This document shows positions 1 to 64,000 of a stretch of 64,000 bases of DNA, in pieces (within the stretch, counting starts at the first letter, position 1; every line of letters begins with the position of its first letter). Source of the stretch: Octopus vulgaris (Eukaryota); the NCBI GenBank assembly GCA_951406725.2, contig OX597816.1:121768001-121832000 (forward strand). The letters are read 5' to 3'. The notes beneath the pieces were generated by a model. That model had not been told where the DNA came from. It made no database searches and saw only the letters and a program-made list of their open reading frames with translations. The position numbers and the translations under genes are program-made.

Positions 1-230
1 AAAATATCTCCTTCTGTGTGTGTGAGTGTATATCTATATACTGCCAAACAAACATGATTAATTTAACTCAAGATACTTTTTGGAGTCCCATTCTGATTAC
101 TTTCTTAAATACTTTCTTGTAAACTGTTTTTAACATTTTCTTAATATCACAAAGAATGTATATCTGTATTTTAATACTTTTGTGATAACCAGTACTTTAC
201 ACAACAAAGCTCATACAAAGCTTTACATCT

Positions 231-296
231 TTAGGGTTAGGGTTAAGGTTTTAGGGTTATGGTTAGGGTTTTAGGGTTAGAGTTTTAGGGTAGAGT
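231..296 (+). repeat. Degenerate interstitial telomere-like (TTAGGG)n tract
   Basis: ttagggttagggttaaggttttagggttatggttagggttttagggttagagttttagggtagag; about 10 imperfect units. Confidence 0.8.
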
Positions 297-1979: not shown

Positions 1980-2195
1980 CTTCCGGGAGATGTGGCTCAG
2001 TATCAACTGAGACCTCTACAAAATGCCAGTATCTGTATTGTAATTAGTGGCAAAGCTGAGGGAACCACAAGGTCGCTTGCTAACCCTCTGAAACTTCAAC
2101 CAGGTTCTGTGTTTTTCATGTCTGCCAATGAAATTGTGACTTTAAAACTTGAAGTAGGTAGTATGCTCTTGTTCCGAGCTCATCCCAACCTATAA
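1980..2195 (+). CDS. MPI: Mannose-6-phosphate isomerase, final coding exon
   Basis: Polypyrimidine tract and AG at 1978-1979, then LPGDVAQYQLRPLQNASICIVISGKAEG...LKLQPGSVFFMSANEIVTLKLEVGSMLLFRAHPNL*, matching the C-terminal cupin pattern of type I PMI (SI....G...L..G.V.F..AN....L......L.FRA). Confidence 0.88.
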   Translation, partial: LPGDVAQYQLRPLQNASICIVISGKAEGTTRSLANPLKLQPGSVFFMSANEIVTLKLEVGSMLLFRAHPNL

Positions 2196-8100: not shown

Positions 8101-8818
8101 CAACAAATAACTATAGTCAGAATTCAGATAATGTCTTAACAGAAAGGAAGCAAAGTGTGAGATTGAATATACTTTTGTAAAGTTTGGACATGTCTGTTGT
8201 TTTAACACAGATATTTTTAATAGGAAGAAAGTAATTATTCTGCCTCATTAAGAATGTGTAAGGTTTTTTTTTAAACATTTTTCTGAAACACAGGAAAAGT
8301 AGGCTGAAATTAACTAACAAATTATATAAAAGAAAATGGTATTTTGTATCAGCACTTTTTTCCTTTCTACTTACTAAATGTGTAGCGAGAACTGGAGAGA
8401 GGGGGCAATGTTTTGAGAATACATGTGGAGGTGTGTGGAAAAGTGTGATCATGATGTCCTTTATTTTTAAATTGATTCTGAGGAGGGAAGGGATAGAAAA
8501 AAAAATTGATACTGTATGTATCAATACTTGATATCAGACAGGAGAATGCAAGTCATTATTCTTTAGAGCCTCTTTTGGCAACAAGAATTTCGAATGGTGC
8601 AATTTGTGGTATTTAATCTCAAAAGATTTCAGTCTCTCTGGCAAGGTTGCCTCAAACCAGGTGAGGATCACAAGAAATATTTTGATTTAAGTATTTAATT
8701 TCTGTTGGAGATTTTGAGTTATCATGTACTGGTTGTTCAACTAACCCAGTGAGAAGACCAGAGAAATATGAAATGTAAGGTAACCATAAAGTCCATTTTA
8801 AATCTGTGGCAACTGTTT

Positions 8819-8848
8819 TCAATGTAGTACACTACTTACATCCCACAT
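8819..8848 (-). CDS. WDFY2: WDFY2 final coding exon (MWDVSSVLH*)
   Basis: AG acceptor at 8850-8849, phase 0, completes the last WD repeat (..LIK|MWD), TGA at 8821-8819. Confidence 0.9.
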   Translation of the reverse strand: MWDVSSVLH

Positions 8849-9647
8849 CTGGAAAATAAATAAAGAATAAAGACCATAAAAATCAATGAAAATGTTACAT
8901 GTGTACATTCAACAGCTATATTATTTTGTTGTGTGTTTTTATGAATACATTTCCCATATATTCTGTACAAGATGTATATTTAGAAATGTATTTGTATTGG
9001 ATTGATTAACACTAATAAAGAAAAAGGGAGGTGGGTGTTTTATAATTGGCATCATTCTTGATGTTATGCTAGACTTATTTAAAATAAACTCATATTTAGA
9101 CATGATTAACACATGATATTTACAGGCCAACAAGGGAACCGATATACACCAACTCAATCTGCTAAGAATAGTAGTCAAACCTCTCATTACACTTTACTGT
9201 TGTACTAAAAAGAAATGAGATAATGTACATCTAAACATAGTGATGATATTCATAGTTGGAATACATTCGACCATCATGAAATATTTAATGTAATCTGATT
9301 GGCTAGTTTGCCATCTAAGTTAAATGTAGTATTATAGAGAGAAAACTCTCAGGGGCAAAGCAGAAAGAATCGAGACTGTACAAGCTATAAGGTTTTTAGT
9401 TCTCTGCTGCAAGGAAGAAAGTGAAGTTTGGTTGAATTTGCCCCTGATGAAAGAAGAAATGAAGTTGCATGGTAGAAAGAGGAAGGATGTTGACAGGTAA
9501 AGAAAGATGAGTGAGATGTAAGCATACAGATTCTAAGCATAGTTTGTTGCATGGGTGAAGGACAGCAGGGGATGCAAATACACATCAACAAGTGAAGGCT
9601 GTACTTGTGAGTGGTGATATTTTGTGTATGGGTGTGGATGTAAGCAG

Positions 9648-10518
9648 CTAAAGAAGAATTGAGTTCAAGTCATGAAGAAGTATCATGCCAAGGCAGAAAA
9701 TAAGATCCATTTCACCTTATAGTTGGGAGTAGAGAACTATGGTGAAAGACAATACTGGAGAAGGAAAGGTACAGAAAAGTGTCGTTAGGCAAACTGAAAT
9801 AGTGAACCCTATGTGATCAAGTGCTGTGGCATCAGATGTCTAGCAAGAACCCTTTAAACTGATCCAAATAACCTTTGACCAGTGTCACCTATATACATCT
9901 GGCTGCATAGCTGACATTTTATGTAATAAATGTGTCTAGTGGGACAGATGAAATAGTGATGCATAATGAAGGACAAATGCAGCATAGGGTCTGGGTTGAG
10001 TGTGCTGGGATGTGGAAGAATGATCGATCACTAAGTTATGAAGATTGTGGGTGTGTCAACAGGAAGGGGAATAGTGGGGTCAGACAAGGAGATGGAGATA
10101 CAGTAGGAAAATGCAGGAGAGGTAATGTGGCAAGATGGTAGGGAGGTAAAAAAGATGCAGTTGGTGATGGGGAAAATAAGCAATGAGGGCAGAGGTGCAG
10201 TTGACATCATAGTTGAGGAAGTAGATAGTGTTTATCATTTGGAGCTAACACACATGAAGTAGTGGACTATATGCTGATACTGAATCTCAGAATCAAGGCC
10301 ATAGATACGGAGGTGAAAGAATTGTGAGAGGGGGATGGCAGATTTTGTGTGAGTGGGTTGAGGTAACATTGAGAAATAGAAATAGAAAATAATGGGTTTG
10401 TAAAAGATACGGCTAATGGATATAGAAATGTCCAAGAAGTTTGTAGATGTGAAAAGAGATGACAAAGGTGATGTAGAAGATGTGCTGATACAGTCATCAA
10501 TGTAACGATCGCATAACG
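9648..10518 (-). mobile_element. Decayed Penelope-like element (RT C-terminal half plus GIY-YIG endonuclease) in the last WDFY2 intron
   Basis: Minus-strand fragments RYIDD (about 10490-10507), FLDISISI..IFYKP, HTKSAIPLSQF, HIYYIKCQLCSQMYIGDTGQRL and EMDLIFCLG...DLN*; frameshifted. Confidence 0.85.
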
Positions 10519-10731
10519 CTAGGATGAATAGTTCAGTGAATTGCGTGATGATTTGGATTTCAAATTACAAGCTGACAGTTGTTGCCCATCTTGATTCTCA
10601 AGGTCCCCTAGATCACACAGATTTTTCATGAAAGCCAACCTCAGACTAAAACAACAACAAAATATCTGCAAATCACAGAAAACAAACTGAAATGAAACAA
10701 CTATGGAAGTAGTTTCTATTTTATTGCATAC

Positions 10732-10840
10732 CTTAATAAGTCTGTCTTTACCAACTGTGAGGAGTCTTTTGCGTGTTGCATCAAGATGCATGTATACAAT
10801 ACTATGCTTGGCATCATGAAATGTTGCAAGAGGAGCTCTT
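10732..10840 (-). CDS. WDFY2: WDFY2 coding exon ([36 protein letters not shown])
   Basis: AG/GT bounded, 109 nt, in frame with neighbouring exons. Confidence 0.95.
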
Positions 10841-11239
10841 CTGCAATTAAAATTAAAAAATTGGCCTTTTTAAAAAGGAGAACAAAAATAGCCATTTGGA
10901 TTAAATCTATTTTGTCAGCTAGATGGGTTTTTTAAAACTATTTTTCAAAAGTGTAAAAATTACCTGTGTGCTTCAACATGCTCAAGATTTTGGACAGGCT
11001 AAGTAAAATAACTACAACTCTGTTATACTGGAGTTGGCTAACAAATCTTATTCTTGTGATGAAAGCAACATGGGAAAATTGGTATTAAAAAGATTAAAAC
11101 CATTGATAACAAGACTTACGCTACTATTTTACATTCTTTACTATGGTAATGTCTGCAATACAGCATATTGCTTTTGCATTAATGTTTTCAAATACACCCA
11201 TGAGTTGGAAGAATCTTCTCCAGTACAGAATCTTGCTCT

Positions 11240-11715
11240 TGTTTTCCTTTATCATCTTCATGAGGGTGAGATTCCTGAGATCATTTTTCACCACTTCATC
11301 CTCTGTAGGTTCCATACACTTGAATCACTTTGTACTCTTTAACCCAATTGTCATTCTCCATAGACATCCCAAGTCTGTGTGCCAGTGCAGTCGCCTTCTC
11401 CCTTACACACTATAGCTGATTCTTATATCTAGTTTGCCTCGAGTGCATTTGCTCCCCAAAGTTGATGCACACTAATGTTTACATATCCAACTGAATATGT
11501 TCACCTCATGTCTTTCTTCACATATTCTCCACATTCAGGGCCCATGTTTCTTTACCATTCAATATCATACTTTGTACACAAGCATGATATAGTCTACCTT
11601 TCACTGAGAGAGAAGGAATTCCTTTGTTGCCAGCCTCTTTACTCTGTTCTTACTCTGGCTGTGTACTGTAACATCCACCATTTCTAATTAGTTCAAAATG
11701 ACTAGATCTGACTTC
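11240..11715 (-). mobile_element. Highly decayed RTE-type LINE fragment; further pieces probably at about 12350-12640
   Basis: Resembles the RTE fragment at 20870-21415 (RRL.W.G..RM-type motif near 11360-11400). Confidence 0.45.
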
Positions 11716-11782
11716 TCACACCTATTCTACAATGTCATTCATAAAACATACAATAACATCATCAAAATTTCAAAGCAATGAA

Positions 11783-12170
11783 TATGAGGTGGTATCAAAA
11801 GCTTCCCAGACAAGTTCTGTAGCATACCAGCAGATGGCAGCACATGGTTGCGTGCATAAGGACCTTCATGAAGCAGTGTGCTGGGTGACATTGCTGTGCT
11901 TACTTCACAAGTTTTGAAATTTATGTTCTTGTGATCACATGTATGCTATAGTCTGCAAATTTGTCACAGACAGGAATAAAGAGCCAATGTAAAATTCTGC
12001 ATTAAACTTGGGAAGTCTGCTACAGAGACATTGAGCATGCCTTAGCAAGTGTACGGTGATGAGGCAATGGGTCGTACGCAATGTTTTGAGTGGTACAGGT
12101 ATTTCAAAAGTAGAAAATCCCTGGAAGATGATGAGCAATCTGGAAGACCTGCCATGGGCATCACCTCTGG
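11783..12170 (+). mobile_element. Mariner transposon 5' fragment
   Basis: TA followed by TIR-like tgaggtggtatcaaaagcttcc; HTH peptide YGDEAMGRTQCFEWYRYFKS.KSLEDDEQSGRP. Confidence 0.85.
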
Positions 12171-12914
12171 AATTGTAGTGTTGTGCATTTTAAACATTAT
12201 TGATCCAGGAACCTTTTGGTATAACCTCATAAATAAGCATTACATTTGACAAAAGTAACCTGAAGGCTAAATGGTTATTGACCATTTTAACCAGATAGCC
12301 ACCATATAGTGGTTCCTATATTTGGTGCACTTGAATTATTCCCTTTCTATTCCATGTATTCTCTTAATTCAATGAATTTTCATAGAAACATTTCCATGCC
12401 TCTTATCAGCATTGGAGAGGTTTAAGCACATTGCCATCATTATGTACATACATTTTGCCACTAGCATCCTGTTCATATAGACACACTCCTTTGCAATCCA
12501 GGACATGGCATGCTTCCAATCCATGTCACTACCACTTGATACTGTTTCTTGCCCCTCTGCTTCCTTCCATTCTTTACTGAGCTGTCAGTGAACTTTTAAG
12601 GCTCTATCTACTGTACAAGTATACCCCATATGTCACCTTCTACTCTATCAGGTATCATAGATCTGGTCCCCTTCAAACCACACCATACCAAACTAAAAGG
12701 AAAAAAAACTTTGGTTAAAGTAGTCTAGGTCTGAAAATTAAAAACAAATAAAAAACATGATGATCATGGCTGGAATGCTTTTGATCATTGGTCTGCTCGA
12801 TCGTTAACAGCTTAGAACTATAATTATCTCAGTGTCAGTATGTGAGACTCACTAACCTCGTTGCAATTAGACCAGTAATAAACACATCATACATTCAACA
12901 TAAAAGATAAAAGA

Positions 12915-17514: not shown

Positions 17515-17857
17515 CAGTCGTGGCCAAAAGTTAGGAACATTTTTTTAAAAATTAAAATTAAAATGCCCAAGTACAATTTGATTCAAATATAACTTTGGGC
17601 ATTTAACCCTTTAGTTAGAAGTAATACTTATTTATTCACTTTGTTTTGAATTAATCATGCATTATCTTGAAATTTTGATGAGGTATCTATTAATTTTTAG
17701 AATGATATTGTAAGCCTGGTGTAAGAGGCTAGATCTGGACAATTTGAATATAAAACTGGTAGAATATTTTGGCCAGATATGGCCAATTTAAATACTGAAG
17801 GGTCAGTATAAAAATTCTAATTTTCAGACCTATGTTCCAAATTTTTAGCCATGACTA
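17515..17857. mobile_element. Tc1/mariner-type MITE containing a nested piggyBac-type MITE (about 17607-17802)
   Basis: Imperfect 25-bp TIRs cagtcgtggccaaaagttaggaaca / tgttccaaatttttagccatgacta; inner element starts ttaa-cccttt and ends gaaggg, related to 26680-26889. Confidence 0.7.
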
Positions 17858-26115: not shown

Positions 26116-28109
26116 CTGGAAGAAAAAAAATACAAACATATATATATCACCATCCTATCCTAACATCCATAAGACAAGTCTTATAATTGATGTAATTTTT
26201 CTATGGTCAGACACTTTTCCTGTTACCAGCCTTCACTAGTTTCCTAGCAGGACAATATTTGCTACAGTCTTTCATATGAGAGCTGGACATAAAACAGCAG
26301 TTGTAAATAAAGACAGTCTATATGGTGACTGTTTATTCTGCATACATGCTTATGCAACACTCAATATCAAGACTAGGGGAAGATGCACGCGTGCACATGC
26401 ACACACACACACACACACACAAAGCTTTGTATAGTTCCTACTGACAATTTTACTCACAAAGCCTTGAGGTGACCATTACTATAATCACCTTAGGGCAGGT
26501 GCCTCTAGAAATAGACATCTACCCTCAGTGCCATGTTAGGAGGAAGCTGAAATCACATGGTTGTGAAGTAAACTGCTTAACCTCGTGTGTGTGTTACAAT
26601 AATAATAATCAAAATACGGTACAAGGCTGGTAGAAATTGGGATGAGATGGTGGGTGGAACAATGGGTTAGTTGATTAATCCATTAGCATTTAAACTAGTC
26701 CAGAAATTCTTGATTTATGTTTAAACTGGCCAGATCCAGGTTTTCACACCTATCCAATCATGTCATTCTAAAATTAAACAATCATTTGATCAAAATCTTG
26801 AAGCATCAAGATAACATATAATTAATTCATAATAATGTGGATGCATTAGCATTACATTCGACAGAGCAATCTAAACATTAAAGGGTTAAATTAACATAGG
26901 TACTTGACAGGTACTGTATTTTCTTGACTTAGAGGCATAAAGGGTTAAGTTGACATTGTGACAGAATTTGAACCCAGAACAAATTTGAAGCCAGAATAAA
27001 TATTGACCTCAAATTTTGGTATAATGCAATTACATCGACCCCAGAGTTCAGCAGGTACTATTTTATTGACCCCAGAAGGATGACAAGCAAAGTCGTCCTT
27101 GGTGGAATTTGAACTCAGAATGTAAAGACAGACAAAATGCTGCTAAGCATTTTTCCTGGTGTGCTAACAATTCTGTCAGCTCACTGCCAAAGAGCCAGAA
27201 TAAATATTCCAAGGCATTTTGTTTGGTACCCTAATGATTTTACTAATTCACTGCAATAGCAGTAGTAGTAGTAAATTCTGAAATCGTTAATAATGCCACA
27301 AATTTTGAAGACAAGATATAGTCAAAGAATTCAGTGCTTGACTGGAATGTATTTTACTGACCTCATTGAAAGGATGAATGTCAAAGTGGCCCTGAGAATA
27401 TAAAGGAGGCATCTAAATATCACAAGATACAAACATCAAGTTTATGGGTGAAGAAACTTGATTGTATCAAAACTAGTATTTCCCTGCTTCTCTGGTACTT
27501 ATTTTATCAAACTCAGAATGTAATGGGATGGCTAAATGCCAAAAAGTATTTTGTTCAATACTTATCTCATTGCTTTATTTTTTTTTTATATATATAAAAT
27601 TATATTTTACATAGGCACAAAACCACAAATTTTGGATGGGGAAATCGTTTATTAAATATGTTACATTATTGACCACAGACGGATGAAAAATAAAGTTGAC
27701 CTCAGCAGGACTTGAACTAAGAACATAAAGAGTCAGAATAAATATTGTGTGGCATTTTGCTTGATACTTTAACAATCCTACCAACCCACCACTTAGGCTT
27801 AATTTCAAGGGTTTACATCCTCATCTGCCCTTAAAGTCCAAACAGTATGAAGATTCATTCAAGATTCTGTCTGCAGCTTGAAGAAGCTTAGGAGACACTA
27901 GCATCAGTTACTTAAAACAACCCCCCAGTATTTGGTTGGTACTTATTTTATCAATCCTAGAAGGTTGACAGGCAAAGTAAGCTCAGAACATAAAAAGCCA
28001 GAAACAAAGAACACAAAGCATTCTGTTCAACAAACAATTCTGCCAACCCATCATTTATTAAAGGACACACATAAAAAGATCAAGAGTAAAATTTAATCCA
28101 AATTTCATC

Positions 28110-31729: not shown

Positions 31730-31901
31730 TAAATGCATACACAGATATATCTACATGCAAGTATATATATCTAGACACATGTAATTTTTAACACTTTAGT
31801 TGAGTCCAAGAAATGAATTCTTTGTGAAGTGTTAGTGTCTCCATCCCCAAACATGTCCTAATCTTTCTAAGTGCCCCACAGTCTCAATAAACACCACATT
31901 A

Positions 31902-32131
31902 ATTTCTTTATTGCCCACAAGGAGCTAAACATAGAGGGGACAAACAAGGACAGACAAAGGGATTAAGTCAATTACATCGACCCCAGTGCGTAACTCGTAC
32001 TTAATTTATCGACCCCTAAAGGATGAAAGGCAAAGTCGACCTTGGCAGAATTTGAACTCAGAACGTAACGGCAGACGAAATACCGCTAAGCATTTCGCCG
32101 GTGTGCTAACGTTTCTGTCAGCTCGCCACCT
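31902..32131 (-). mobile_element. Young tRNA-headed SINE (type A tail) with TSD
   Basis: Head ggtggcgagctgacagaaacgttagc...gagttcaaattc, central gtcgactttgcctttcatcc..gtcgataaa; TSD aataaa(c/t)accaca at 31886-31898 and 32134-32146; near-identical copies at 35239-35470 and 56590-56820. Confidence 0.9.
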
Positions 32132-34899: not shown

Positions 34900-35700
34900 C
34901 TTTCTTCTATAGGCACATGGCATAAATTTTTTTAGGGAGGGAATAATTCGATCATATCGACCTCAGGGTGTAACTGGTACTTATTTTATCGACTCTGAAA
35001 GGATGAAAGGCAAAGTCGACCTCGGTGGAATTTGAACTCAGAACGTAAGGACAGACAAAATTCTGCTAAGCATTTTGCCCAGCATGCTAATAATTCTGCT
35101 AGCTTGCGACCTTAATAATAATAATCCTTTCTACTAAAGGCACAAAGCCTGAAATTTGGGAGGCGGGGTCTAGTCGATTACATTGACCCTAGAACTTTGT
35201 CTAGCATAAGCATTTTATTCAGCATGCTAACAATTCTTATTTCTTTATTGCCCACAAGGGGCTAAACATAGAGCGGACAAACAAGGATAGACAAAGGGAT
35301 TAAGTCGATTACATCGACCCCAGTGCGTAACTGGTACTTAATTTATCGACCTCAAAAGAATGAAAGGCAAAGCTGACCTCGGCGGAATTTGAACTCAGAA
35401 TGTAATGGCAGACAAAATACCGCTAAGCATTTCGCCCAGCATGCTAACGATTCTGCCAGCTCATCACCTTCTTAATAATATTTCAAATTTTTACCACAAG
35501 GGCAGCTTGGAGGAAGTAGGGAAGAGTCGATTACATCAACCCCTGTATTCAACTGATACTTATTTTATCAATCCCTAAAGGATGAAAGGTAAAGTTGACC
35601 TCGGCAGTATTTGAACTCAGAACGTAAAGACAGATGAAATACTGCTAAGCATTTTATTGAGCATGCTAACAATTCTGCCAGCTCACCACCTTAATAATAA
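34900..35700 (-). mobile_element. Cluster of four co-oriented SINE copies with different tails
   Basis: Repeated head and central domain at about 34900-35112, 35125-35237 (internally deleted), 35239-35470 and 35480-35692, mostly separated by taataa tracts. Confidence 0.85.
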
Positions 35701-36200
35701 TAGATATTATAATGGTTGTTTCTTGTTGGGCATGACATGTTTATGTATTGCTCTAGTTTGGAGGAACATACAAGGTGGATGACTTGCACAGTTGTTAAAA
35801 CCTCGGATACAATACTTTGCAGTATTTGTCCCAACACTTTACACTCCGAGTTCAAATCCTAATTTTCATCATTTTGAAGTTGATAAATGAAGTAGCAGTC
35901 AAGTACAGAGGCTGATCCTGCTTTCTACACCTCACTGTTTCTTCCTCTTTCTCACCCCACTCTCTCTCTTTCTTTCTCTCTCAAAACATTCAGACCTGGA
36001 GAGATGGGTTTCAACTGGTATAAAGCATCCAGAATGTAGCATGTGTCTTTACAGCACTCCTATGACTTCACTGCAGATAGATATATGGAGAATTATTTCT
36101 TAGAATATCGCAGATTTATTACACCCCTTGCCAGCAAAAGAATGCCTGAATAACAGGGTTTGCATAATTTAATATCAAAACTAACAACAAAAATACTCAC

Positions 36201-41599: not shown

Positions 41600-43300
41600 A
41601 AGTTGGTTCCATTCAAATCTCTGGGATGACATTAAGAGTAAAGTGATCAATATCACCCAGGAGTGAGCTGAGAGAAAGCTATTCCTGAAGGTTGGGCAGA
41701 GCTGACAAACATCTGCATCGTGTCCATCATATAGTACTCTCTGAGCCCATCACAGCTTGCTCTTGTTTTTGCCTGTTCAGATTGAAGCATCTTTTATTTC
41801 ACTGCTTGTAAAAAGAGCAAATTCTAATGGCCAGGAACACCATCTGCTACAAACACCATTGCAGACATCTCAATGGAATGCAGCAGGATGGTAGAATTTA
41901 GCTTCTGCTTATTTTGTTGAGGATGTTTGGGAGCACAATCAACGTCATAAATGGGAGGGAGCTTAAGGATGGTTGGGTTGAGAGGTCTGAGATCACCTAT
42001 GTATGCTCTCAAAAAATTTAACAGCTTTAGTGGAAAGTCAGTTGAGTGCCAGAGAAAAGGTAAAATATAGGAAATAAGACAGACCATGCTACACTGCATT
42101 ACTATAGCAAAGGCAATGCACTTCAGAAGACTGACCATGTTGTTAGCAAGAAGAGACTCAATAGATCACAGTGTGGTAGCTGCTCCATTAAGCAAGTTAC
42201 TCAGAATGGCACATCAAACTGTATGCAAGTGATCCTTTTTATCTTGATCTCTCCAAATAAGGTGAGCAAGGCAGTACCAAAATGCCATCCCAGAATGGCA
42301 ATTCTATCAGCATCTTGAGGTTGTGACACTTTTGGAAACTAACTCAGATCCAGCTACGGTTTCTTCTTGGAGGCATTCAGCCATTATCAATTGGAGGTAG
42401 CCTGGCATCATGCTCTTTTATCAAGTGAATATGCAAACCATTACTCTGACTCCATGATTCCTATTGTATTGGATGGAACAGCTATAACCAAACGATGTTG
42501 CTGGCATTACTGTCGGTCAGCTGGAGCATCAGCATTGAATGGCATAGACTATGTTGAAACACTGACAACTTGGAGCCTTACATATGTAGATGCACTAGTA
42601 GTATACAACTAACATATTTCATGATGGCTTAATCACAGCTCACATACCCTGTCAGTGGGTGAACAATACAGCACTTTGTGAATTCTACTTTGCATTGAGA
42701 GGAAGAACCCCAACATTGATGGATCAAAAAGTAATATAACTGTGCAAGCTTGGTTACTACAAGCCAGATATCACTGTAGTAAATTTTCTGATATTCTCTA
42801 GGCAGATACACAGATCACTGTTCAGAAAAGATCAATGAGCACAGAAGGCTCAGTGTGCACCATAGCTGATGCAAGGACATGCTGATCCTGCAGTGCTAGG
42901 TCAGGCAAAGAACAGAACTAGGCATCTAACATCTGGTATGTTGTCAGATGCACACAAATATCAACAAGTCAGGTAACGTGACCAGTATAACTTGGATATC
43001 AGTTTTTATAGAGAGGACTAATAATGATGTACTCAACAAAATTTTGTGTCAACAAGAATCAATAGATTGGTTTGTTTTAAAAGACTTTCAACTTGGAGAC
43101 TAGATAACTTTCAGAAATCCCAGCCAGGCAGTGCTATCAGAATTTTTGAGTGGAGATCTTGCCAATACAAAATAAACTCAATGGAGTACAGGAATGTTGT
43201 TAGCTAGGCCACTCTCAGCTGCATGCAAAATGACAAAACGATTTTACAAGCACTCATTTGCAAAGTTACGTAGAACAACTGTTATCACATGTTCAATGGG
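41600..43300 (-). mobile_element. Very old LINE remnant (APE plus RT, possibly CR1/L2-like)
   Basis: Higher GC block; minus-strand traces GISESYL, LIDLF and WSQSNGL; no long ORF. Confidence 0.35.
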
Positions 43301-47589: not shown

Positions 47590-48722
47590 TACTTATGTCA
47601 ACTGGACATTTTGTCTTCATAACTTTCAGGACAGTAGATATTTTTTAGTGAAAATTTCTACAAAAACTTTTCAGATGTCATAGATTACATCAAAATTTAA
47701 TGTGAAATCTAAATGAGGAGGAGATATTTAATCCATGCATCTCAAATTTATTTTCCTCATACATTTTGATGATTTCATAACAATTATGTTGAAAAAAAAA
47801 TTACTTTTGAGAACTATTCCACCCTTTCCTGAAAATTCTATGAAAGAAATCTTTGTAGAAAGCAGTGTACAATATGAACATTAATTATTGAATACATATT
47901 TCTTTCAGTATTTTACTGCAATCTTAATTTCTCTCTCTTAAACAGTCTGGAAGGTGGTCTATCCCCTACATGGTTGTTTAGTATGGCTAGAAATAGAAGG
48001 GATCACATGTCTCAAAAATAATCTTTATTTTCAACATAACTGTAATTAAATCATCGAAACATTGAGGAAATAAGTTGATATGTGTGAGATATCCACCTTC
48101 CCCAATTATTTTTTTCCACACTAAATTCCTATATAATTATTATCTAAACCATCAAAAAGTTATTTGTAGAAAATTTCACTAAAAAAATTCCCACAAATTC
48201 CAATATAATAGGCACAGGTGTAGCTGTGCAGTAAGAAATTTGATTCTCAACCACATGGTTCCAGATTCAGTCCCACTACGTGACACCTTGGACAAACAAA
48301 AGCCTTGTTAGGGGATTTGGCAGACGGATGCTGAAAGAGGCCAGTCATGTGTGTGTCCCCACCACCACCACCACCACCACCACTTGACAAGTGTTGGTTT
48401 GTTTATGTTCCCATAACTCAGCAGATCAGCTTAGGAGATCAAAAAGATAAGTACCAGGCTTATTTGGGCTGATTTGTTCAACTAAAAATTCTAGGCAGTA
48501 CCCCTAGGATAACCAGTCTACTAATTGACACTAGTGAAAGATAATCATAATCTACCTCATCTGAAGTGTATTTGTAGAAACTTTCATTAATAAATATCCA
48601 TTTTTCAAAAAGTTATGAAGAAGGAAATTTAGTAGGGCACATTTCTGTAGTTATGCCCTAATTTTACTGGTCAAGTAAGTTATTAAACAAAAAAAGAGGA
48701 TTCAAAAGATAATTGGACATAA
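47590..48722. mobile_element. Foldback-like DNA element with long imperfect inverted repeats, interrupted by a SINE
   Basis: About 47640-47812 is the diverged reverse complement of about 48010-48187 (tttagtgaaaatttctacaaa / tttgtagaaaatttcactaaa); further match at 48570-48620. Confidence 0.6.
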
Positions 48723-50084
48723 CAATCAGAAAAATTACACAAACTAAGAATCAAATGTGTAAATTTGATTTAGTAACTAGCAGAAAACTGCCCAGAGAGC
48801 TGTCTTTCTGCTAGTTTTGTAAACTAATTGCTGCTAGTTTTGTCCTGAGAGGAAATGGTGTCACATACAGTTTCAGAAGTGAAACTCAGTAAAGAAACAG
48901 ATGGAATGTGCATTGACTCACTACTTCAGTGGAGTAATGCAATAGCTATGGTAGAAGAAACAGAGGATATAGTAATGCACCATCCCAGATTTGTATGTAA
49001 TATTACACTATGATTTTGAAAAGAGAAGCCTTAGATCTTAAGGAAGGAATTAAGGACAAGTTTAAAAATACATTTGTGGCTGACACGAAGGCTAATAGTT
49101 GCAGATACTGTGAAGTTTTTTGTTTTTTTTTAGTTATGCATCGTTCATGAGTTGAAAGATGGTCATGGTGTTTCCTTGAGTATTTAACAAAGAGGAGAAC
49201 AGAAATATGATGTTAAATGGTCTACCAAGACATCTTAGAAATATTATCTTCCTTGAAATAGGCTAAAAGCTAATACCAAATCTGTGTGGAAAGTTCAGGT
49301 CCTCTGAAGTTGGTGAAATTGATGTAAGAAGGTCGGCTGAAAAGTTCATAGGCTGCATAAGATACTTTTATGGAATGTGACTAAATGAGGTTTACTTTTT
49401 AAAATAGTCCCCCTTGTAGTCCACACACTTCTCCTACTGGTTATGCCATGCTTGGATCCTATTGGTGAAGGAACTTTCATCCTGTCACTCAAAAATGTCA
49501 TCAGCACTGTTACAGGGACGTAAACACACCAACACTGGTCACCAAGCAGTGATGGGGGACAAACATAGACACAACACACACAAAGTGCTTCTTTCAGTTT
49601 CTCTCAACTAAATCCACTCATAAGGCTTTGGTCGGCCTGAGGCTATAGTAGAAGACACTTGCCCAAAGTGCCACACAGTAGGACTGAACCCAGAACCATG
49701 TAGTTGGGAAGCAAGTTTGTTATCACATAGCCACAGAAGAAAGAACTTACAAGTAAGAGAAGGTTTCAATAAAGAAATTAATTGTAAGAAACAGGAACTA
49801 CAACTTATTTAATACAAAGTCAGTCCTGATTTGTCAAATGTATCACATGAACCAGTTTCTCTCTTCCTTTTCTTTTTCTCCCTAAAGACAACACAACGTA
49901 TCAAGAACTACATTATCCAATGTATTTTTCCATTTTTGAAACAGCACATTGAAATTTTAGGAAGATTTGGTATCTATTTCTAGCAAAACTTATAGATTTC
50001 CTTCTTTAGTTCATAGGACCAACAGTACATGAAGAACATTTTAAAGACTAGTATGTTATTCTGCATTCATTCTGTTATACAAGA

Positions 50085-51195
50085 CATAAGACAAAGCTAA
50101 GGAAAATGCTACAGACACAGTAAAAACAGAGAAAGTGGTTCTTCTACCCACTTATTTGGGAAGAAGGACTTCAAGAATTAGGGTGGAGGGAATTCCACTG
50201 GAAATTGACGTGGCTTGGATCTTGGCAGCTGTTCTTCTGGGAAGTGAGGAAGAAGTAGCTGTCCTCCAAGCCACAAAGAAGGAAGGCTCGGTTTGGAAAG
50301 GAAAAACAATGGATCTGATTGTACAGGCTGCAGTAGAGACACTCGAAAATTTAGTGGAGATAGTATCAGAGATATGGTGCTGAAAGTGTGGGTGGAGGGC
50401 AGGACTCCTCCCTGCTTTAAATGTGGCCCAAAAGGCCACATTAGAGCACACTGCCCTCTGCAAATGCAGGCCCTGGAAAGGATGGACAAGAGGCTGGAAA
50501 AGAAGCAAGAGGAGGAAAAGGAAAGAAAGGAAGAATGGAAAATTGCAGAAGGAAGGCAGAAAAAAGGAGAAACGAACAGTGTTATGTGGAACCCCACCTC
50601 ACCATTACTCTCTGAGACCCCCCTCCCCTACAGATACCGAACCCACCCATCCCCTCCTATACAATCCAAAAAGAAATAAGAAATGCAATCACAACAAAGT
50701 ACAAAGTATTCCCTTCCCCGTGAAGTAAATTATGTTTGTATACTGACAGACAACGAGAATAAGGAACTAATTTGGAAAGTAACAGGTTGGAAGACAGCAA
50801 AAATGGTTTATACAGAAGGATATAATAACACAATAAGGTGGCACATGTGTGTGCTGCTTTCAGAAAAGCAGATAGGAGAGGTGAAAAATTACAAAAAAAG
50901 TTTTAAGTTTTGGAAGATCAATACGGACATTAAAAGGATACCGGACAACATAAGGTATGAGAAACTATTGGTGAAATTTGGTGTTGATGTGGTAAAAAGA
51001 CTTCCAAGGAAGTAAGTGATGCTGCTTGAGGTGGGGAAAGCAGCACATTTCCATTTTCTCAATCTCGTTATTCATTCATACTATCATATTTATAACTTTA
51101 TTTGAATTTTATTTTAATTATTTTGTGTTATATGTCCCCACATGTGTTTGTGTTGTCCCCTCTTTGTTAGGCCCCTTGTGGGAAATAAAGAAATA
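50085..51195 (+). mobile_element. ORF1-only (gag-like CCHC) retroposon, 5'-truncated copy 1
   Basis: VVLLPTYLGRRTSRIRVEGIP, VWVEGRTPPCFKCGPKGHIRAHCP, stop at 51015, about 180-nt 3' UTR ending gccccttgtgggaaataaagaaa; no RT. Confidence 0.75.
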
Positions 51196-51199
51196 ATGG

Positions 51200-52892
51200 T
51201 TTCTTCAATGTTTGTATATTTATACTTTGCTTTTTGTACTGGTGTTTTATTCTTTTGAACATGTTGTGCTGCTTTGCAGCAGTTTGTTTGTGGTTTGTTT
51301 GTGCTTTCTCTTCTCGTGAAAGGAGAGGTAGCTTAGTAAAAACATATCTGTAGAAGATTATAGCTTCTCAGACATATTGTCGCTGGAAGAGGAATTGTTG
51401 GAGGCGGTTTGGTAGATGGACAATCAATTGAAGAAGGGGAAGAGGAATTTTGCCAATGTGGCAAAATGCCAGGAGAAGGAAATGGATATCGGAAAATTTG
51501 GAAGGTATAAAGATTTAGTAAGTTGGGATGGTTTTGAGGTGAAGCTGTCCCCCACCACAAGTGACACATAATAACAATAAGGAAACAATAATGTACTGAA
51601 TCTTTTCAATAAGTAAAGGAAAAATTGACATTGTGACTACGGACCAGGTGGAAAAGGCTATGAGACCGATATGGAGCGATATTGTGTACCTCGCAAGAGG
51701 TTTGATGTTTGGAGTAGTGGTGGTGAGGTCCAAGGACATAGCAACAGCAAGGAAACAAGAAGCGACATCCATCAAGAGTGAAGAAGTGGTGTTTCTGCCC
51801 ACTTACCGAGGATTAAGAGCAACAAGAATCAGTGTAGAAGGAATTCCGCCAGCGAGACAGATGTGGCCCGGGTAGCAAACACTGTCTTTCTTGGAAACAA
51901 GGACAACATAGTGGTTATCCAGGCCAGAAAAAAGGAAAGCATGATATGGAAGGGACAAACACTGAACCTGATTGTTCAAGGATCAACCAAGACTCTGGAA
52001 AATATCAGAGTCAATAATTATGGATGATGTGATAATGACGGTCCAGGTGGAGGGCAGAGTCCCCAGCTGCTTTAAATGTGACCCAAAGGACCACATTAGA
52101 GTGGATTGCCCTTCATAGACCAAAAAAGCAGAGGAGAAGTGACTGAAGAATATGGAGGAGCAAAAGGAAGAGAGGTTGGAGAGTTCCAGAAAAGAGGACG
52201 GAGTAGTAGCAATGGAGGACAAGTGGGAAAAAGTCACTGAAAGAAAGAGAAAGCAAGTGTTTTGAACTCTAAACCTCAACCCACACCCTCTCAGACCCAC
52301 CCTCCCCCACAGACACGAAGCCTACTCATTCCTCTCCGACACAAAAACAAAAGAAAAAGAAAACAAGTACACACAAAACCCCTCAAACTCCCTCCAGCCA
52401 GACAGAAAAGAAAAAATGTATTGTAATAATGTATGATGATTCAAATGAGGAATTATGTAAGGAGGTAATGACATGGGAAGAGTGTAAAAAATGGAAACAG
52501 AGGGGTATGACAATGTTAAGAGGTGGAACCAATGTGTGGTATCCACAGAGGAATAAAAGGTGAGGTTGACAAGGCATGAAAGTGGATATGATTGGTGGGA
52601 TGTGGAACTTGATTGGAACAAACTACCAGACCTTTTAACATATGAAAAATTGTTGGAAAAGCATGGTGTAGACATTTTTGAAGGTTCAAGGTATAAGAGA
52701 TGTTAGAAGGCAGAAATGGAGTTGCTCAGAGGTGGGGCTGAGTAGTTTCATTGCATTTTCTCATTTTCATTATCATCATGTTCTCATATGTTGATTTGAT
52801 TTTTTGACCTTTTCTTTCTCTTTTTGTTTTGTGTCCCCATATGTTATGTATTGTCCCGGCTGTGTTAGCCCCTTATGTGCAATAAAGAAACA
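51200..52892 (+). mobile_element. ORF1-only (gag-like CCHC) retroposon, copy 2
   Basis: VVFLPTYRGLRATRISVEGIPP, VQVEGRVPSCFKCDPKDHIRVDCP, same 3' UTR ending gccccttatgtgcaataaagaaa; no RT. Confidence 0.75.
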
Positions 52893-52959
52893 ATGGTTTC
52901 TTTCAAGGTTTGAAGAGAAGTCTTTAACTTAGTTTTTAATGAAATGACGATATAGAAAA

Positions 52960-55280
52960 CAAATGAAAACAAGAGTATTTTGTCTTTGGACGAATCCGAT
53001 ACTGATATTAGTGAATATTCGTTGGACGAGGAGGATATTGAGAACAAAAGTGATAAAAATGGTATGACAACATTGTCAAAGACTACAACACCAATTACTA
53101 TTCCTGATTTTACAGAAAACACTGGTCCACAACACAATTTACCTCTTGATGCTCAACCATTGGACTACTTATTTTTATTTTTACCAGAAAGTTTTTTTTG
53201 AAAATGTTATGGAGGAAACAAACAACTATGCACAATGTATAATTTCTATTCATGGAAGAAACAATCCACTATGTCAGCCAATTTATACTGTGTAAATGAG
53301 AGCGTTTTTCACAATATTACGTTTGGTGTTAAACAGCTTCCTCAACCGTGGAACTACTGGAGTCCTGATAGATATCTCAAGTATAAGACAAGGTATTCGA
53401 AAATATCTCAGTATTTACATTTAATTGATTCTGTTAATGCCCCCAGCAAAAATGACCCACACTACAATCCCTTGTACAAAGTATGTCCTGTAATTGATTT
53501 ACTCCTTAATAGTTATAAAACTGTGTATGTACCTGAGAAAAATCTCAGTGTAGATGAAGCCATGATAGTCTATAAGGGCAGAGTACATTTTTGGCAGTAC
53601 ATGCCTGCCAAAGCCACTAAACGAGGGATCAAGGTATGGGAGGTTTGTGAATCAGACACTGGATATTGCATAAACTTTGATGTTTACACAGGTAAAAAAT
53701 ATAATGGGAACAGACCATATGGATTGGGACATGATGTAGTACGGTCTCTTACTGAACCATTTCACCATCAGCACTGACACTGCTAGTTTGAATGTTATTT
53801 TTTCTTCACTGGCTTTGGCAGAAAATCTTGCCCATGTAAGTACTTACATGTGCAGTACTGTTATGGGCAGCTGTAAAGGTTTACCCCGTGAAATGAAAAC
53901 AAAATTTATAAAAAAGAGGGGTCATTTTACAAATGCAAAAGGAAAATTTATTAGTTACTGCTTTCAAACACAAAAGACAGATTTTATTTCTGTCTACTAA
54001 TGAACAACTTGGTATTGGTGCTGAGGAGAAATCCCTAGTGAATAGTTATAACAAATATATGGGTGGGGTTAATAAATCTGACCAATATTGAGCACATTAC
54101 CCTGTTGGTCAACCTGGGAAGAAATCATGGAGGTATATTTTATAGTTTTTTTAGTTAATTTAATTACAGTTAATTCATATATTGTATATGTAAAAAGCCA
54201 CAAGGTACCTCCACCACCAAAGGACTATGACCATTTGAAATTTCGGTTGACATTGATTCCCAGTTATGTGAGGGCTTTTCTTCTAGAAAGCACACAACTG
54301 GGAGAAAAGCAAAATTAACTGAAGTGTGTGTCAAGGAGAAAATATTGACTTTTATAAAGTCAAAAAGATAAATGGTAAAGAAACAGTTTGGAGACTGTGT
54401 TCGCTGCTAAAAAGAAAAACTGCAAAAGGGTATCAGATCAAGACTTCGTATATGTGTTTCTTTTGCAAAGTGCTTTTGTGTAAAAGGTGCTTGGGCAGTT
54501 TCATGACAGAAATATGTCATAACTATATTATTTTATCATATATTCCTTTTCATTTTATTATAAATATGTGAAAGTGAGAAATACATAATAATTTTCAATA
54601 TGTTACACACCTGTATTCACCTTTATCTCACCTGTTAATGAGCTTTTTTTATTAGATGCATTCTGTTATGTAATTGAATTCATTAAATTGTATAAGAGTA
54701 CATAGCCAATGGTGTATTGACTAGTAAAAGAGTTTTGTACTTCATTTTCAATGAAATACAGAGAAAGAATAAAATCTTGTACCAGTTACACCTGTATTTT
54801 AATTAATTCAAATTTAAAAAAAGCTCATTAACAGGTGAGACAAAGGTGGATACAGGTGTGTAACATACTGAAAATTAATATGTATTTCTCACTTACACAT
54901 ATTATCTTGAAAAATGTAAAATTGTTTCCATTATATTTTTTAAATGTGTAAACATCAAATAATTTTAGTAACAAATGAAACAGGTAAGATATATTAAGAA
55001 TATGAATTTTAGTATTTATTCCTAATATTGTTTTTACACCTGTAAATTAAATTTACCTGCCCATAGAAGTCAAATTTAATTAGAAAGATCAGCTAAAATT
55101 ATGTAACTATAAACCACTGGCATATAAGTACCCATTTACAAAATTTCAAATCTGTATGTAGAAAATTAACAAGTTACAAGCAAATATTGTGGAAACCCCA
55201 CTTAAACCTGAATAAATCAAACTTAATGTGAACAGATAAGCCTTACATTTGACAAATTCATCTGAACACTAAAGGGTTAA
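52960..55280 (+). mobile_element. Decayed piggyBac transposon (PGBD4-like transposase) with right end
   Basis: Acidic N-terminus, LSVDEAMIVYKGR...QYMPAK.TKRGIKVW, YNKYMGGV.K.DQ, C-terminal Cys-rich domain; ends aaaggg-TTAA at 55271-55280; left TIR not found. Confidence 0.92.
54563..54903. repeat. 88-bp inverted repeat inside the piggyBac 3' region
   Basis: 54563-54650 versus 54816-54903, 5 mismatches, 165-bp spacer. Confidence 0.92.
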
Positions 55281-56589
55281 AGCTTCTGTAGACTCCTGTT
55301 TTACAGCTTTGTAAATCAAATCAAAGAAGAACAAAGTATTTTGCTGAGGACCACATTGAAATGCTAGTGATGCATTTGAATTGAGGATCCATGAGAAGAC
55401 AGCCCCAAAACTAAGCAGTTTTGAACTGTTGCCTCTATCAGTGGAAATCTAGATATAACAGTATTTTACTAGGCAAAATACCAATCAGTCACTTGTTGAA
55501 AATCTGATTTTTTTTAAAAATGTAAACAAGTTAGAAAGAGAAGTTACTCATCAGACTAGAAGTAATATTGATTATGCTTAATGTACGGAGGTCATGCTCT
55601 GTATCTATCTTAATTAATTGGTCTGGATGGCTTTAACGTTATTGAGCCATTGCAGCAATGTTAAGTCATAAGATAACATCAGAGAGAGAGTGAGACAGAT
55701 TATCATTAATATTATCAAACATTCACAAATGGCATACAGATGAGATAGAGCCCCCACAACTGAACTTAGGCACAAATTTCACCGATTTGTTTTCTTTCGT
55801 AATCAATAAATCACATTTAATCTGTTGAAATAATTAACCATAGAAATGCTTCTTTGCCAAGAATAATTATTGCTTCTTAAATACTAAAATACACATTTTC
55901 AAAATGATACTGAGTTTAAAGGAAGCCCTGTGTAGCACTGTCTGTTGTTGATTCAATCAAGTTTCCTCTTGAGAGTAAAGGAGTATATGTTACTCATTAT
56001 CATATACTAACTTAACTGTAATAACCTTGATAGTTTAGATGATGATGATGATGAGAAATTTCTAATATAGAGGTAAGGCCACATATTTGGAGAGATGTGT
56101 ATAGTTAGTTAAATTAATCCAATGTGCTGGACTGGTACTTATTTCATCAATGACAGAAAAATGAAAAGCAAAGCTGATCTTAATGAGATTCAGATTCCAA
56201 ATATCCTTATTCATCTCTCCATATAGAAGATAACTATGACATCACTATTGGATTGGTTGGGGAGTGATTACAAATCAATATGTAGGCAGCCCAAAACATT
56301 CTCAGTATCCTCAACTCATTTACTCCTAGCTTGCTTAGAAGTTACACTGCAATATGAGGTTGTGCTAGATAAATATCTCAAAAGTAAGATTCTCCCAGGA
56401 TTCTGGATTGACCTTGAAGTCTTTTAGGGATACCTCAAGAATACTCTACACACCAAGTGAATGTTTCCTCACTTACCAAAAACAAAAAGAGTTTCCGCAG
56501 TTCTGGCATTGTGGTCAGGCAGTGCATGCTTCATGATTGAGAAACCTGTGTTTGAGATGTTGTCCTGCCAATTAATGTACAGCATTCTA

Positions 56590-56820
56590 ATTTCTTTATT
56601 GCCCACAAGGGGCTAAACATAGAGGGGACAAACACGGACAGACAAAGGGATTTAGTTGATTACATAGACCCCAGTGCGTAACTGGTACTTAATTTATCAA
56701 CCCCAAAAGGATGAAAGGCAAAGTCGACCTTGGCGGAATTTGAACTTAGAATGTAACGGTAGACGAAATACCGCTAAGCATTTCGCACAGCCTGCTAATG
56801 TTTCTGCCAGCTCACAGTCT
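56590..56820 (-). mobile_element. tRNA-headed SINE (type A tail) with 15-bp TSD
   Basis: TSD aatgtacagcattct at 56574-56588 and 56828-56842. Confidence 0.9.
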
Positions 56821-57547
56821 TTCACAGAATGTACAGCATTCTGTGAAAGCAGTTCAGTTGGAATCTTAAGCTCATTCTGTCTAATACAGCTGAATTTACC
56901 AAACCATTACTCTCCATAACAATCATTTTCATCCCAGCACTGAGAGTTTATATTTTTTAGAGCATGGAGTCAATAAGGACTATCTTCTCTTTAAAGAATG
57001 ATCAAAGATATTTTATAAATATGCTTTCTTTCATTTTCCCTTTCACTGTCACAAATATAGGTAAGAGTATCAATGTCACTCATGGAGGAAATTGCTTTTT
57101 TATGAAATTATAACAGCCAAGCTGACAACAAGGTGAAAGATATCTACAGAAGTTCAAATTGTCGACTACAAGTTTCTTTCTCCATGTAAAGAGCAGACTG
57201 TATGAGGCAAAGATTGTTTATCTTAAACAGCTCAATGTTATATGATCACATAACATGAATAAAAACAGAAAATTTTTTTAAAAATGAGGAGCAGCAAACT
57301 GAGTTTGCTGCAGAATAATTGACAAGAATAGCTGAGTACAAGTGAATTGCAAAAGTAGTTAATGCATATATGACAAAGCAGACAATTATGCTAGTAGGGA
57401 TATATAACACAAATGGACAAGTACTAATGAGAGTAGGGGGATAAATAAATAAAATATTAAGTATTTTAAGGAAACAGTTGAAGCTATGTTAACCTTAGCA
57501 AAAGTGGATCATGAGAATTTTGGGAGAAGAACTAAGATCATTATTAA

Positions 57548-57768
57548 CCCTTTCGTTACCGTATTTATTTTGAGATGCTTTGTTTTTCTCTCAATTATTT
57601 TAAATATAACAAAGAATTTAGTAAAATAACTTAGCTATCATTAAGCTAGTGTTAGGAATATAAATTGCAACTAATGTTTGGTGGTATATTTTGATGCAAA
57701 ACTTATGAAAACAAGACATTTGTACTACAGAGCCAGAGCCAGTTTTGGCCGGGTTAGTAACGAAAGGG
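57548..57768. mobile_element. piggyBac-type MITE
   Basis: TTAA-ccctttcgttac ... gtaacgaaaggg-TTAA; perfect 12-bp TIR and TTAA duplication. Confidence 0.9.
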
Positions 57769-58108
57769 TTAAGAATATTTGATGTCAGAGATGACAATAT
57801 GCATGCTTTGAAAACCTATCATATGGGCATGACTGTATGATAAGGAGCTTGCTTCCCAACCTCATGATTCTGGATTCAGTCTGTGTGGCACCTTGAGCAA
57901 GTGCCTTCTACTATAGACCAGGCCAACCAAAGCCTTGTGAGTGGATTTGGTAGACAGAAACTGAAAGAAGTCCATGGTCGGTGTGTGTGTTCCTTATGCA
58001 TTCAGAAACTGAGTTGCCAATTTTGGCATATGGGGTATCTAAAAATTCAATAATCTTTCTGCTACCAAATAAACTTTATTTTCGTTTACATATTTTCTAT
58101 GTTTTCTC

Positions 58109-63287: not shown

Positions 63288-63650
63288 ATTTCCACGTCAG
63301 GAGGGTATGTTTTGATTGTCGTTAGTTTGTCCATCTATGTGCAAAATAACTCAGAAAGTTGTGAACGGTATTCAATGAAACTTGCAGGAAAAGTTGGTAA
63401 TGACACAAGGAACTGATGATGAAATTTTGGTAGTGATCCAGGAATTTTTATGGATTCTTGAAGGATTTTTCATTTGTTATATTTACTTTACATGAAGTAT
63501 TGTTACGTACTTTGATTATCTCCCTTGAAAACACTTCAGCTCCATGTAACCTATGGTGGTGTTGCTGTTTCCAAAGTTTATTTTTGTTTCTCTATTAGTA
63601 ATTTTACTTGCGTATCTATCTTAAAATGAGCTGCTTGGCAGAGGTCTGCA
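63288..63650 (+). mobile_element. Helentron-associated (HINE/DINE-like) non-autonomous element, tentative
   Basis: 5' ccacgtcaggagggtatgtttt...aaaataactcagaaagtt...aatgaaactt and 3' cttggcagaggtctgc resemble HINE subterminal repeats. Confidence 0.5.
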
Positions 63651-64000
63651 GAGGATGACATGACAAGCCTTGACTATTGGGATCGACTCAAAAAGCTCAG
63701 GCTTTGCTCCCTCCACTGCCGCTGTGAGCTCTATTTCATCTGTATGATGTGGAAAATATTCCATCAACATTGCTCATCTTTAAAATTTGTCCAAGGCTTG
63801 GGCCCCGTGCCATCTGTCCACTATAGAAATGTTCATGTCATATCACAACACTATGACAGAACTATTTCACCTCAATTGGCCCTGTTCTCTTCAACATCGT
63901 GCCAGACACACATAAGGGAGGAAAGTGACTTCACAGCATTCAAACGATCCCTAGATGATTACCCCCAACAAATACCAGATAAACCATCCACACTCAGATA
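63651..64000 (+). mobile_element. CR1/L2-group LINE ORF2 C-terminal fragment
   Basis: LDYWDRLKKLRLCSLH.R.E.Y....MWKI ... FTSIGPVLFNIVP ... FKRSLDDY..QIPDKP. Confidence 0.8.

Follow-up and report, generated by a model that had tools for sequence, protein, structure and literature searches.

The stretch of DNA analysed here (64,000 nucleotides (nt) of contig OX597816.1; hereafter, the window) carries two diverged retroposon copies, E1 and E2, which lie immediately upstream of a relic of a piggyBac-type DNA transposon. Our preferred reading, to which we assign a probability of roughly 0.55, is that E1 and E2 represent a HAL1-like octopus family that encodes only the protein of the first open reading frame (ORF1) of a long interspersed nuclear element (LINE), borrows its reverse transcriptase (RT) and inserts in a targeted manner at the piggyBac start. 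The components of this reading differ in strength. That both elements belong to a non-autonomous ORF1-only family is well favored, while sequence-specific targeting of the short site repeated downstream of each copy (the 20-mer) falls slightly short of an even chance. The partner LINE would likely be of the Tx1 type, and together with a short interspersed nuclear element (SINE) that ends in the same tail, the two may form the three-part system put forward in the first-pass annotation: a LINE, an ORF1-only parasite and a SINE using one tail.

Layout and divergence of the two elements

The features of the locus are listed below (UTR, untranslated region; TSD, target-site duplication).

50075..51194, + strand: E1, a retroposon copy without its 5' part (left boundary approximate)
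50090..51015, + strand: ORF1 relic of E1 (terminal stop 51013-51015), with a predicted RRM-type domain, a CCHC knuckle (~50410-50457), a K/E- and Pro-rich linker and a C-terminal domain (50713-51012)
51016..51194, + strand: 3' UTR of E1, 179 nt, the final ~50 nt in common with a SINE
51195..51214, + strand: first copy of the 20-mer, likely the 5' TSD of E2
51215..52891, + strand: E2, apparently full-length, 1677 nt, between the two 20-mers
51374..52706, + strand: ORF1 relic of E2 (start at or before 51374, not fixed; stop 52704-52706)
52707..52891, + strand: 3' UTR of E2, 185 nt, with the SINE-shared tail
52892..52912, + strand: second copy of the 20-mer (21 nt), whose ATG (52893) shares its frame with the piggyBac transposase relic
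52892..55280, + strand: piggyBac-type relic that hosts the insertions (transposase beginning at 52893; right end at 55208-55276, then TTAA)

The homology of E1 to E2 and to its Octopus relatives begins at ~50075-50100, and its tail ends at 51194; the ORF1 relic is damaged by one frameshift near 50370 and one stop at 50677. E2 consists of a short T/G-rich leader, an ORF1 relic with several frameshifts and several stops, and the 3' UTR. The first-pass annotation had described two diverged head-to-tail elements, and this was confirmed on the same (+) strand by two BLASTN blocks (50133-50457 vs 51784-52112, 68%, E 2e-20; 51049-51214 vs 52751-52912, 76%) and by a global alignment that is collinear between them.

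A six-frame Pfam scan of positions 49000-53500 matched the knuckle alone, with neither an RT nor an endonuclease. The distance from stop to tail end is 179 nt in E1 and 185 nt in E2, with no ORF2 between, so that the ORF1-only layout proposed earlier holds at this locus for both copies. The accompanying claim that ORF1 runs straight into a short UTR without RT was borne out as to the UTR and the missing RT; the ORF itself, however, continues for ~185 codons past the knuckle, through a conserved C-terminal domain, to the stops at 51013 (E1) and 52704 (E2). No poly(A) was found after the tail of either element. Identity as the Gag of a long terminal repeat element was considered and rejected, given the lack of terminal direct repeats and the RRM-type fold.

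Over 190 aligned codons, E1 and E2 share 92 identical residues (48% amino-acid identity). The proportions of synonymous and nonsynonymous differences (pS and pN) are 0.70 and 0.31 (Fisher p 2e-14), identity at the three codon positions is 0.60/0.76/0.47, and the nonsynonymous-to-synonymous ratio (dN/dS) is 0.20, a value that is blind to whether selection preceded or followed the loss of ORF2. The C-terminal blocks are likewise constrained. These data show purifying selection at the codon level between the E1 and E2 lineages. In the UTR as a whole, 130/193 columns are identical, which is far above synonymous-site conservation. The proximal UTR is alike from just past the stops (82/133 columns, 62%; 300 shuffles gave a mean of 49.5 and a maximum of 58). 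Since the homology between the two UTRs sets in directly behind the ORF1 stops, the ORF1-to-UTR junction would be older than the split between E1 and E2. With one old junction and long separate propagation, an ORF1-only family is the simplest reading.

The ORF1 protein and its relatives

Both copies contain a CCHC knuckle motif (VWVEGRTPPCFKCGPKGHIRAHCP; VQVEGRVPSCFKCDPKDHIRVDCP), which scored 17.0 and 16.6 bits against Pfam zf-CCHC, below the cut-off of 20.8. The region preceding the knuckle, modelled on the relative P0011 with a predicted local distance difference test score (pLDDT) of ~90, adopts a beta-alpha-beta-beta-alpha-beta arrangement, i.e., a ferredoxin/RRM-type fold, and matched the structures of ACT, ribosomal S6 and RRM domains with Z 7-9 (best Z 8.9; RRM rows Z 7.1-7.7). 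As this predicted fold is widespread, it is by itself no indicator of function. An ORF1 in which an RRM immediately precedes a CCHC knuckle is classed as type I among non-LTR elements; it occurs in several clades, I, Jockey, R1, Tad1, plant L1, L2 and CR1 among them (PMC4120745), and is compatible with Tx1 (PMC5203782). Thus, the E1/E2 protein is supported as LINE-ORF1-type by a predicted RRM-type domain directly before the CCHC knuckle, in agreement with the earlier assignment to an L1/Tx1-ORF1-like protein. Transposase_22 was not matched in Pfam scans of the E1/E2 region or of the family proteins. The Atlas neighbours of the relative P0008 are CCHC clusters with PRE_C2HC, RBD_ZCCHC3_2nd plus zf-CCHC, or DUF4283 (scores 0.85-0.91), which serve as leads only.

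The C-terminal domain, of ~95 residues, is present in the ORF of the relative P0004 (E 8e-12) and probably in that of P0008. Its model, built on 7 sequences (pLDDT 71), has a beta-alpha-beta-beta-alpha-beta topology as well. The domain had no match in Pfam or Atlas and none in Foldseek at E<=0.001; in VIA the best Z was 4.8, to ferredoxin-like folds. A ferredoxin-like fold class, but no particular family, is suggested by the model. The comparison with the C-terminus of the P0011/P0026 subfamily was weak (E 0.18), the latter part being poorly modelled. A PDB sequence search with the family profile returned zinc knuckles and, in addition, a single weak row of low complexity. E2 has also retained its N-terminal part, with 34/58 residues in common with O. 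bimaculoides A0A0L8H3A6 from 51374 on and 60-68% identity to the same protein over 51416-51857; its residue pattern suggests a possible first RRM there.

Fifteen related family proteins were collected, eight of which are named, all as Octopus gene models. In the individual searches, the named Octopus proteins made up 1/1 and 7/9 rows, the remainder being a fragment and a weak knuckle-only row. From the 18 matches of the representatives search, the 8 that matched past the knuckle were kept and the 10 with only a knuckle or with multiple knuckles were dropped; in the second relative search, one of nine rows was dropped (P0027, 7% coverage). Scans of all 15 family proteins found no RT or endonuclease domain, which is weak evidence, as ORF2 would be a separate protein. 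Searches for longer or fused forms gave 0/239 candidates in one case and 1/1772 in a second (P0002, 331 aa, no RT), which is weak evidence.

Six Octopus gene models (A0A0L8H3A6, A0A0L8G4Z0, A0A0L8H4Y9, A0A0L8ICC9, A0A0L8G1L3 and XP_029640472.1) belong to the same ORF1-type family, with ~30-68% identity by segment. None of the six is annotated as a retroposon; their records read uncharacterised or CCHC-domain protein. Among the Octopus 'CCHC-domain' gene models, several look like pieces of an E1/E2-type retroposon. In the gene model P0004, the family ORF is fused with a Helitron Rep/PIF1 protein; in P0023 (named K02A2.6-like), it stands beside a Ty3/Gypsy-type gag region. The O. bimaculoides gene model P0011 (A0A0L8G4Z0) is of the E1/E2 type in its N-terminal half, while its C-terminal half is ~identical to the P0022/P0026 subfamily; this chimera may be another tandem pair or a recombinant.

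The shared tail, the 20-mer and the piggyBac relic

The last ~50 nt of E1 and E2 are 76-82% identical to the tails of three SINEs in the window (41/50 for E1 and 38/50 for E2, against each SINE):

31901..32130, - strand: SINE with the shared tail; 16-nt TSD, 14/16 identical
35238..35470, - strand: SINE with the shared tail, 3' member of a SINE dimer; 31-nt duplication, no 15-16 nt TSD
56589..56815, - strand: SINE with the shared tail; 15-nt perfect TSD

The first-pass annotation had called the tail of both elements essentially that of a 'type A' SINE (its own label), and the tail pattern indeed gave 5 matches in the window (E1, E2 and the three SINEs), compared with 0.00 expected from 100 shuffles. 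The tails of E1 and E2 are alike at 38/49 positions, and as the two elements are alike over the whole UTR, the tail belongs to the elements and is not a scrap of a SINE. In two of the three SINEs, a 15-16 nt TSD (15/15 and 14/16 alike) starts no more than 1 nt from this same tail end. Scans of bacterial genomes for stray octopus DNA found the tail pattern at 0 loci, and none of the 269 pattern matches in a second scan was confirmed.

The SINE head and body gave 16 BLAST matches between 14794 and 56813, with different 3' tails. As only three of these carry the shared tail (those being 88-90% alike), one SINE subfamily likely acquired it. The head gave no ARAGORN or Rfam call. The SINE dimer (35207-35702, - strand) is arranged head to tail, the other tail coming first and the shared tail second, and is bracketed by a 31-nt duplication (30/31) of SINE-head sequence, which suggests homology-guided insertion into the head of another SINE.

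The two copies of the 20-mer are 2 edits apart (19/21 alike), a score reached by 1 in 1000 shuffles. The similarity stops at the end of the 20-mer: the stretches downstream were matched by 138, 330 and 443 of 1000 shuffles, and an extension beyond the 20-mer was rejected at this shuffle level. The identity of 19/21 resembles that of the SINE TSDs and exceeds that of the E1/E2 tails (38/49). As both its position and its identity match the pattern of the SINE TSDs, the 20-mer fits a TSD of E2, and judging by these alignments it is likely best read as such.

Downstream of the second copy, the piggyBac-type relic matched Pfam DDE_Tnp_1_7 (E 3.8e-27) and the structures of the piggyBat and piggyBac transposases (E 1e-13 and 1e-9), and its right end was identified by a match to a MITE-end profile (MITE, miniature inverted-repeat transposable element). 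ATG 52893 and the DDE relic share a reading frame that extends over 294 codons, interrupted by three stops but by no frameshift; an acidic N-terminus follows the ATG, which is likely the start codon of the transposase. What is new relative to the first-pass annotation is the likely tie of the 20-mer, as a TSD, to this putative start codon. The earlier proposal that the shared 20-mer is an insertion target was partly sustained: the site fits a target or a TSD and lies at the likely start of the piggyBac ORF, but none of the three SINEs adjoins it and no copy was found upstream of E1.

The right end of the relic is common to three MITE-like copies (26671-26889, + strand; 17594-17811, - strand; 12085-12277, + strand), of which the relic may be the autonomous relative. 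Its 3' region contains an 89-nt inverted repeat (94%; 54563-54651 / 54815-54903) that encloses no notable ORF and is adjoined by a 37-nt inverted copy of transposase sequence (53676-53712 / 54923-54959).

The likely layout of the locus is E1-TSD-E2-TSD-piggyBac. It would place two different subfamilies at one nucleotide, an arrangement that random insertion would hardly give. In the mechanism we propose, the ORF1 protein (ORF1p) produced by the element itself would coat its own RNA, so that ORF1 stays under selection; this protein would comprise the predicted RRM-type domain, the CCHC knuckle and a further beta-alpha-beta-beta-alpha-beta domain. The ORF2 protein of the partner Tx1-type LINE would recognise the ~50-nt tail, which one SINE subfamily would also have taken over. 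Insertion would proceed by target-primed reverse transcription, with the partner endonuclease preferring the piggyBac ATG site, and a second insertion beside the first would create the layout seen. For the SINE, which would rely on this tail as well, site preference would be slight. A later deletion, or truncation with loss of target, would have removed the 5' part of E1, the upstream TSD and the left end of piggyBac. A bolder version, in which an old, diversified octopus radiation of ORF1-only retroposons (several subfamilies, with identity as low as ~30-40%) would have maintained ORF1 by selection in the absence of ORF2, engage the partner LINE through an extra RRM-like C-terminal domain, share one tail with that LINE and a SINE, insert specifically at the piggyBac transposase start codon, stack there and disable the transposon, is unlikely to hold in all its parts.

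Several observations weigh against this interpretation. Both ORF1-only elements precede the 20-mer (2/2), but the three shared-tail SINEs do not (0/3), and the evidence comes from one locus. Upstream of E1, the best match to a third 20-mer within 48500-50120 has 5 edits, against a background of 5-7, and no TSD was found for E1, after which the 20-mer is shorter by one base. The left end of piggyBac was not found in the window, so that an extra deletion must be assumed, and an in-frame ATG arises by chance in 1 of 3 cases. A UTR profile run over the window recovered E1, E2 and the three SINEs only, with no autonomous element carrying the shared tail, and the tail itself folds weakly (a consensus stem-loop of -6 kcal/mol, with 0/11 pairs compensated in 5 sequences only). 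As this ORF1 type is common to several LINE clades, Tx1 is not established; and since ORF2 would be encoded separately, its absence can hardly be judged from protein gene models. P0004 and P0023 place the ORF in a Helitron or beside a Gypsy-type gag, not in piggyBac. In addition, dS is close to saturation, and pN is lowered by the selection of the dN/dS blocks on protein similarity. The tree leaves the placement of E1 and E2 open, as it does 8 of 11 inner branches.

Alternative explanations, known systems and other features of the window

Four other explanations were weighed. An ORF1-only family without a specific target is a somewhat unlikely alternative: E1 would have reached the piggyBac ATG by chance, and E2 would have been primed by pairing of its RNA tail with the homologous A-rich tail of E1, the 20-mer still being the TSD of E2. 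The absence of all three shared-tail SINEs from the 20-mer site, the similarity of the E1 and E2 tails (38/49), the head-to-tail SINE dimer, in which one copy occupies a site with homology to its own head, and the relatives found in Helitron and Gypsy-type gene models are all consistent with it. Against it, DNA transposons often hold the preferred targets of Tx1-type elements, and among SINEU families the preference ranges from weak (13-23%) to strict (90%) (PMC4494074), so that untargeted SINEs do not exclude targeting. It is quite unlikely that E1 and E2 arose sporadically from two ordinary two-ORF LINE families, by internal deletion or premature ending of single copies, with the selection dating from autonomous ancestors. 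O. vulgaris does have many full-length L1-Tx1 families (PMC13282606), and dN/dS cannot place the selection before or after the loss of ORF2; yet the same junction between ORF1 stop and UTR would have to have formed independently in two lineages whose synonymous sites are near saturation, E2 is bounded by a repeated 20-mer at just 1677 nt, and the SINE ends at the same tail, which makes the tail the true 3' end.

The 20-mer could also be the elements' own 3' end, running from AATAAA to the polyadenylation site, in which case there would be no TSDs and the piggyBac frame would be a coincidence. The 20-mer ends 25 nt past AATAAA, which is a usual cleavage distance, and the failure to find a third 20-mer upstream of E1 fits as well. 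This explanation is nevertheless quite unlikely, as neither copy is followed by poly(A), the SINEs stop at the tail, before the 20-mer, the 20-mers (19/21) are more alike than the adjoining tails (38/49), and the 20-mer is in frame with the transposase relic. Finally, the first-pass annotation had itself named a local duplication as a finding that would overturn its proposal. A single insertion that was duplicated locally and then decayed would account for the tandem position and the common downstream 20-mer, but pS of 0.70 vs pN of 0.31 contradicts it, the flanks past the 20-mer are unrelated, and E1 is nearer to P0005 (60/98) and P0011 (67/115) than to E2 (61/116); the chance of such an origin is negligible. 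On these sequence comparisons, E1 and E2 are separate lineages and not a local duplication.

Taken as members of an ORF1-only family, E1 and E2 resemble HAL1, HeT-A (Jockey-derived) and Ag-Sponge (CR1-derived), non-autonomous LINEs that keep their 5' and 3' parts and encode ORF1p only (PMC5786205, PMC5753468); they likewise encode ORF1p alone. HAL1 is an L1-clade derivative in mammals, and L1-clade ORF1s are mostly of the Transposase_22 type (PMC5203782). In contrast, the ORF1 of E1 and E2 is of type I, with an RRM and a CCHC knuckle, and has an additional C-terminal domain; their host is likely an octopus, and in place of poly(A) they carry a sequence tail common to a SINE. Strictly defined, HAL1 derives from an L1-clade element with a Transposase_22 ORF1 and a poly(A) tail, and E1 and E2 fall outside this definition. 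ORF1-only LINE derivatives are therefore already known as a kind, of which E1 and E2 are likely a Tx1-type version.

The insertion site has parallels in Xenopus Tx1, which inserts into the piggyBac-type Tx1D; in tandem SINEU-3 copies that sandwich one TSD in Mariner-N4; and in crocodilian Tx1-Mar, whose machinery also moves SINEU elements, with a weaker preference (PMC4494074). A retroposon within a DNA transposon is common to these systems and ours, and so, likely, are tandem insertions sandwiching one TSD. However, Tx1 and Tx1-Mar carry ORF2 and target non-autonomous transposons, whereas E1 and E2 are ORF1-only and lie at a likely transposase ATG, at one locus; and SINEU-1 has no tail in common with a known LINE. 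In stringent-type SINE/LINE pairs, such as eel UnaL2 and the bivalve CR1 and L2 partners (PMC3747384, PMC4824008), the SINE likewise has the same tail as a longer retroposon. Unlike those partners, E1 and E2 cannot supply RT, and a conserved stem-loop is not supported (5 sequences).

O. vulgaris has 80 L1-Tx1 families, 13 of them recently active, with 421 insertions totalling 2.29 Mb (~5.4 kb each), so that candidate partner LINEs exist; SINEs make up 11.6% of the genome, and the repeat consensus library on Zenodo may hold the E1/E2-type element under another label (PMC13282606). In the literature searched, which included excerpts of PMC4758252, PMC9115989, PMC4824008, PMC11203168, PMC3747384 and PMC8967140, we found neither a cephalopod ORF1-only retroposon nor a partner for the SINE tail, although this does not establish their absence from print. 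ORF1-only LINE parasites are known from few clades (L1, Jockey and CR1), and why ORF1 is retained is an open question. If our interpretation is true, a cephalopod family that combines a type I ORF1, selection on this ORF and a sequence tail in common with a SINE would allow a direct test of ORF1p acting in cis for a passenger RNA and would point to the partner LINE of one octopus SINE subfamily. Its insertion site at the start codon of a transposase would be a further example of a mobile element that targets a second one.

The window as a whole consists of eukaryotic DNA that is rich in AT and dense in repeats. In six-frame translation, positions 1-12000 gave no Pfam match. A likely host exon lies between AG and GT at ~10733-10841 (- strand); Pfam and PDB searches of it gave no match, and it may resemble WDFY1/2-type WD40 proteins. 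A 123-codon open stretch at 63630-63998 (+ strand) had no Pfam match and is not linked to the shared tail; it may resemble the C-terminus of a CR1/L2-type ORF2. A short degenerate TTAGGG-type array occupies 230-297, and a fragment of eukaryotic large-subunit rRNA lies at 42607-42814 (- strand; 112.5 bits). A small element at 57544-57772, with TTAA-flanked inverted ends, represents a second type of piggyBac-like MITE.

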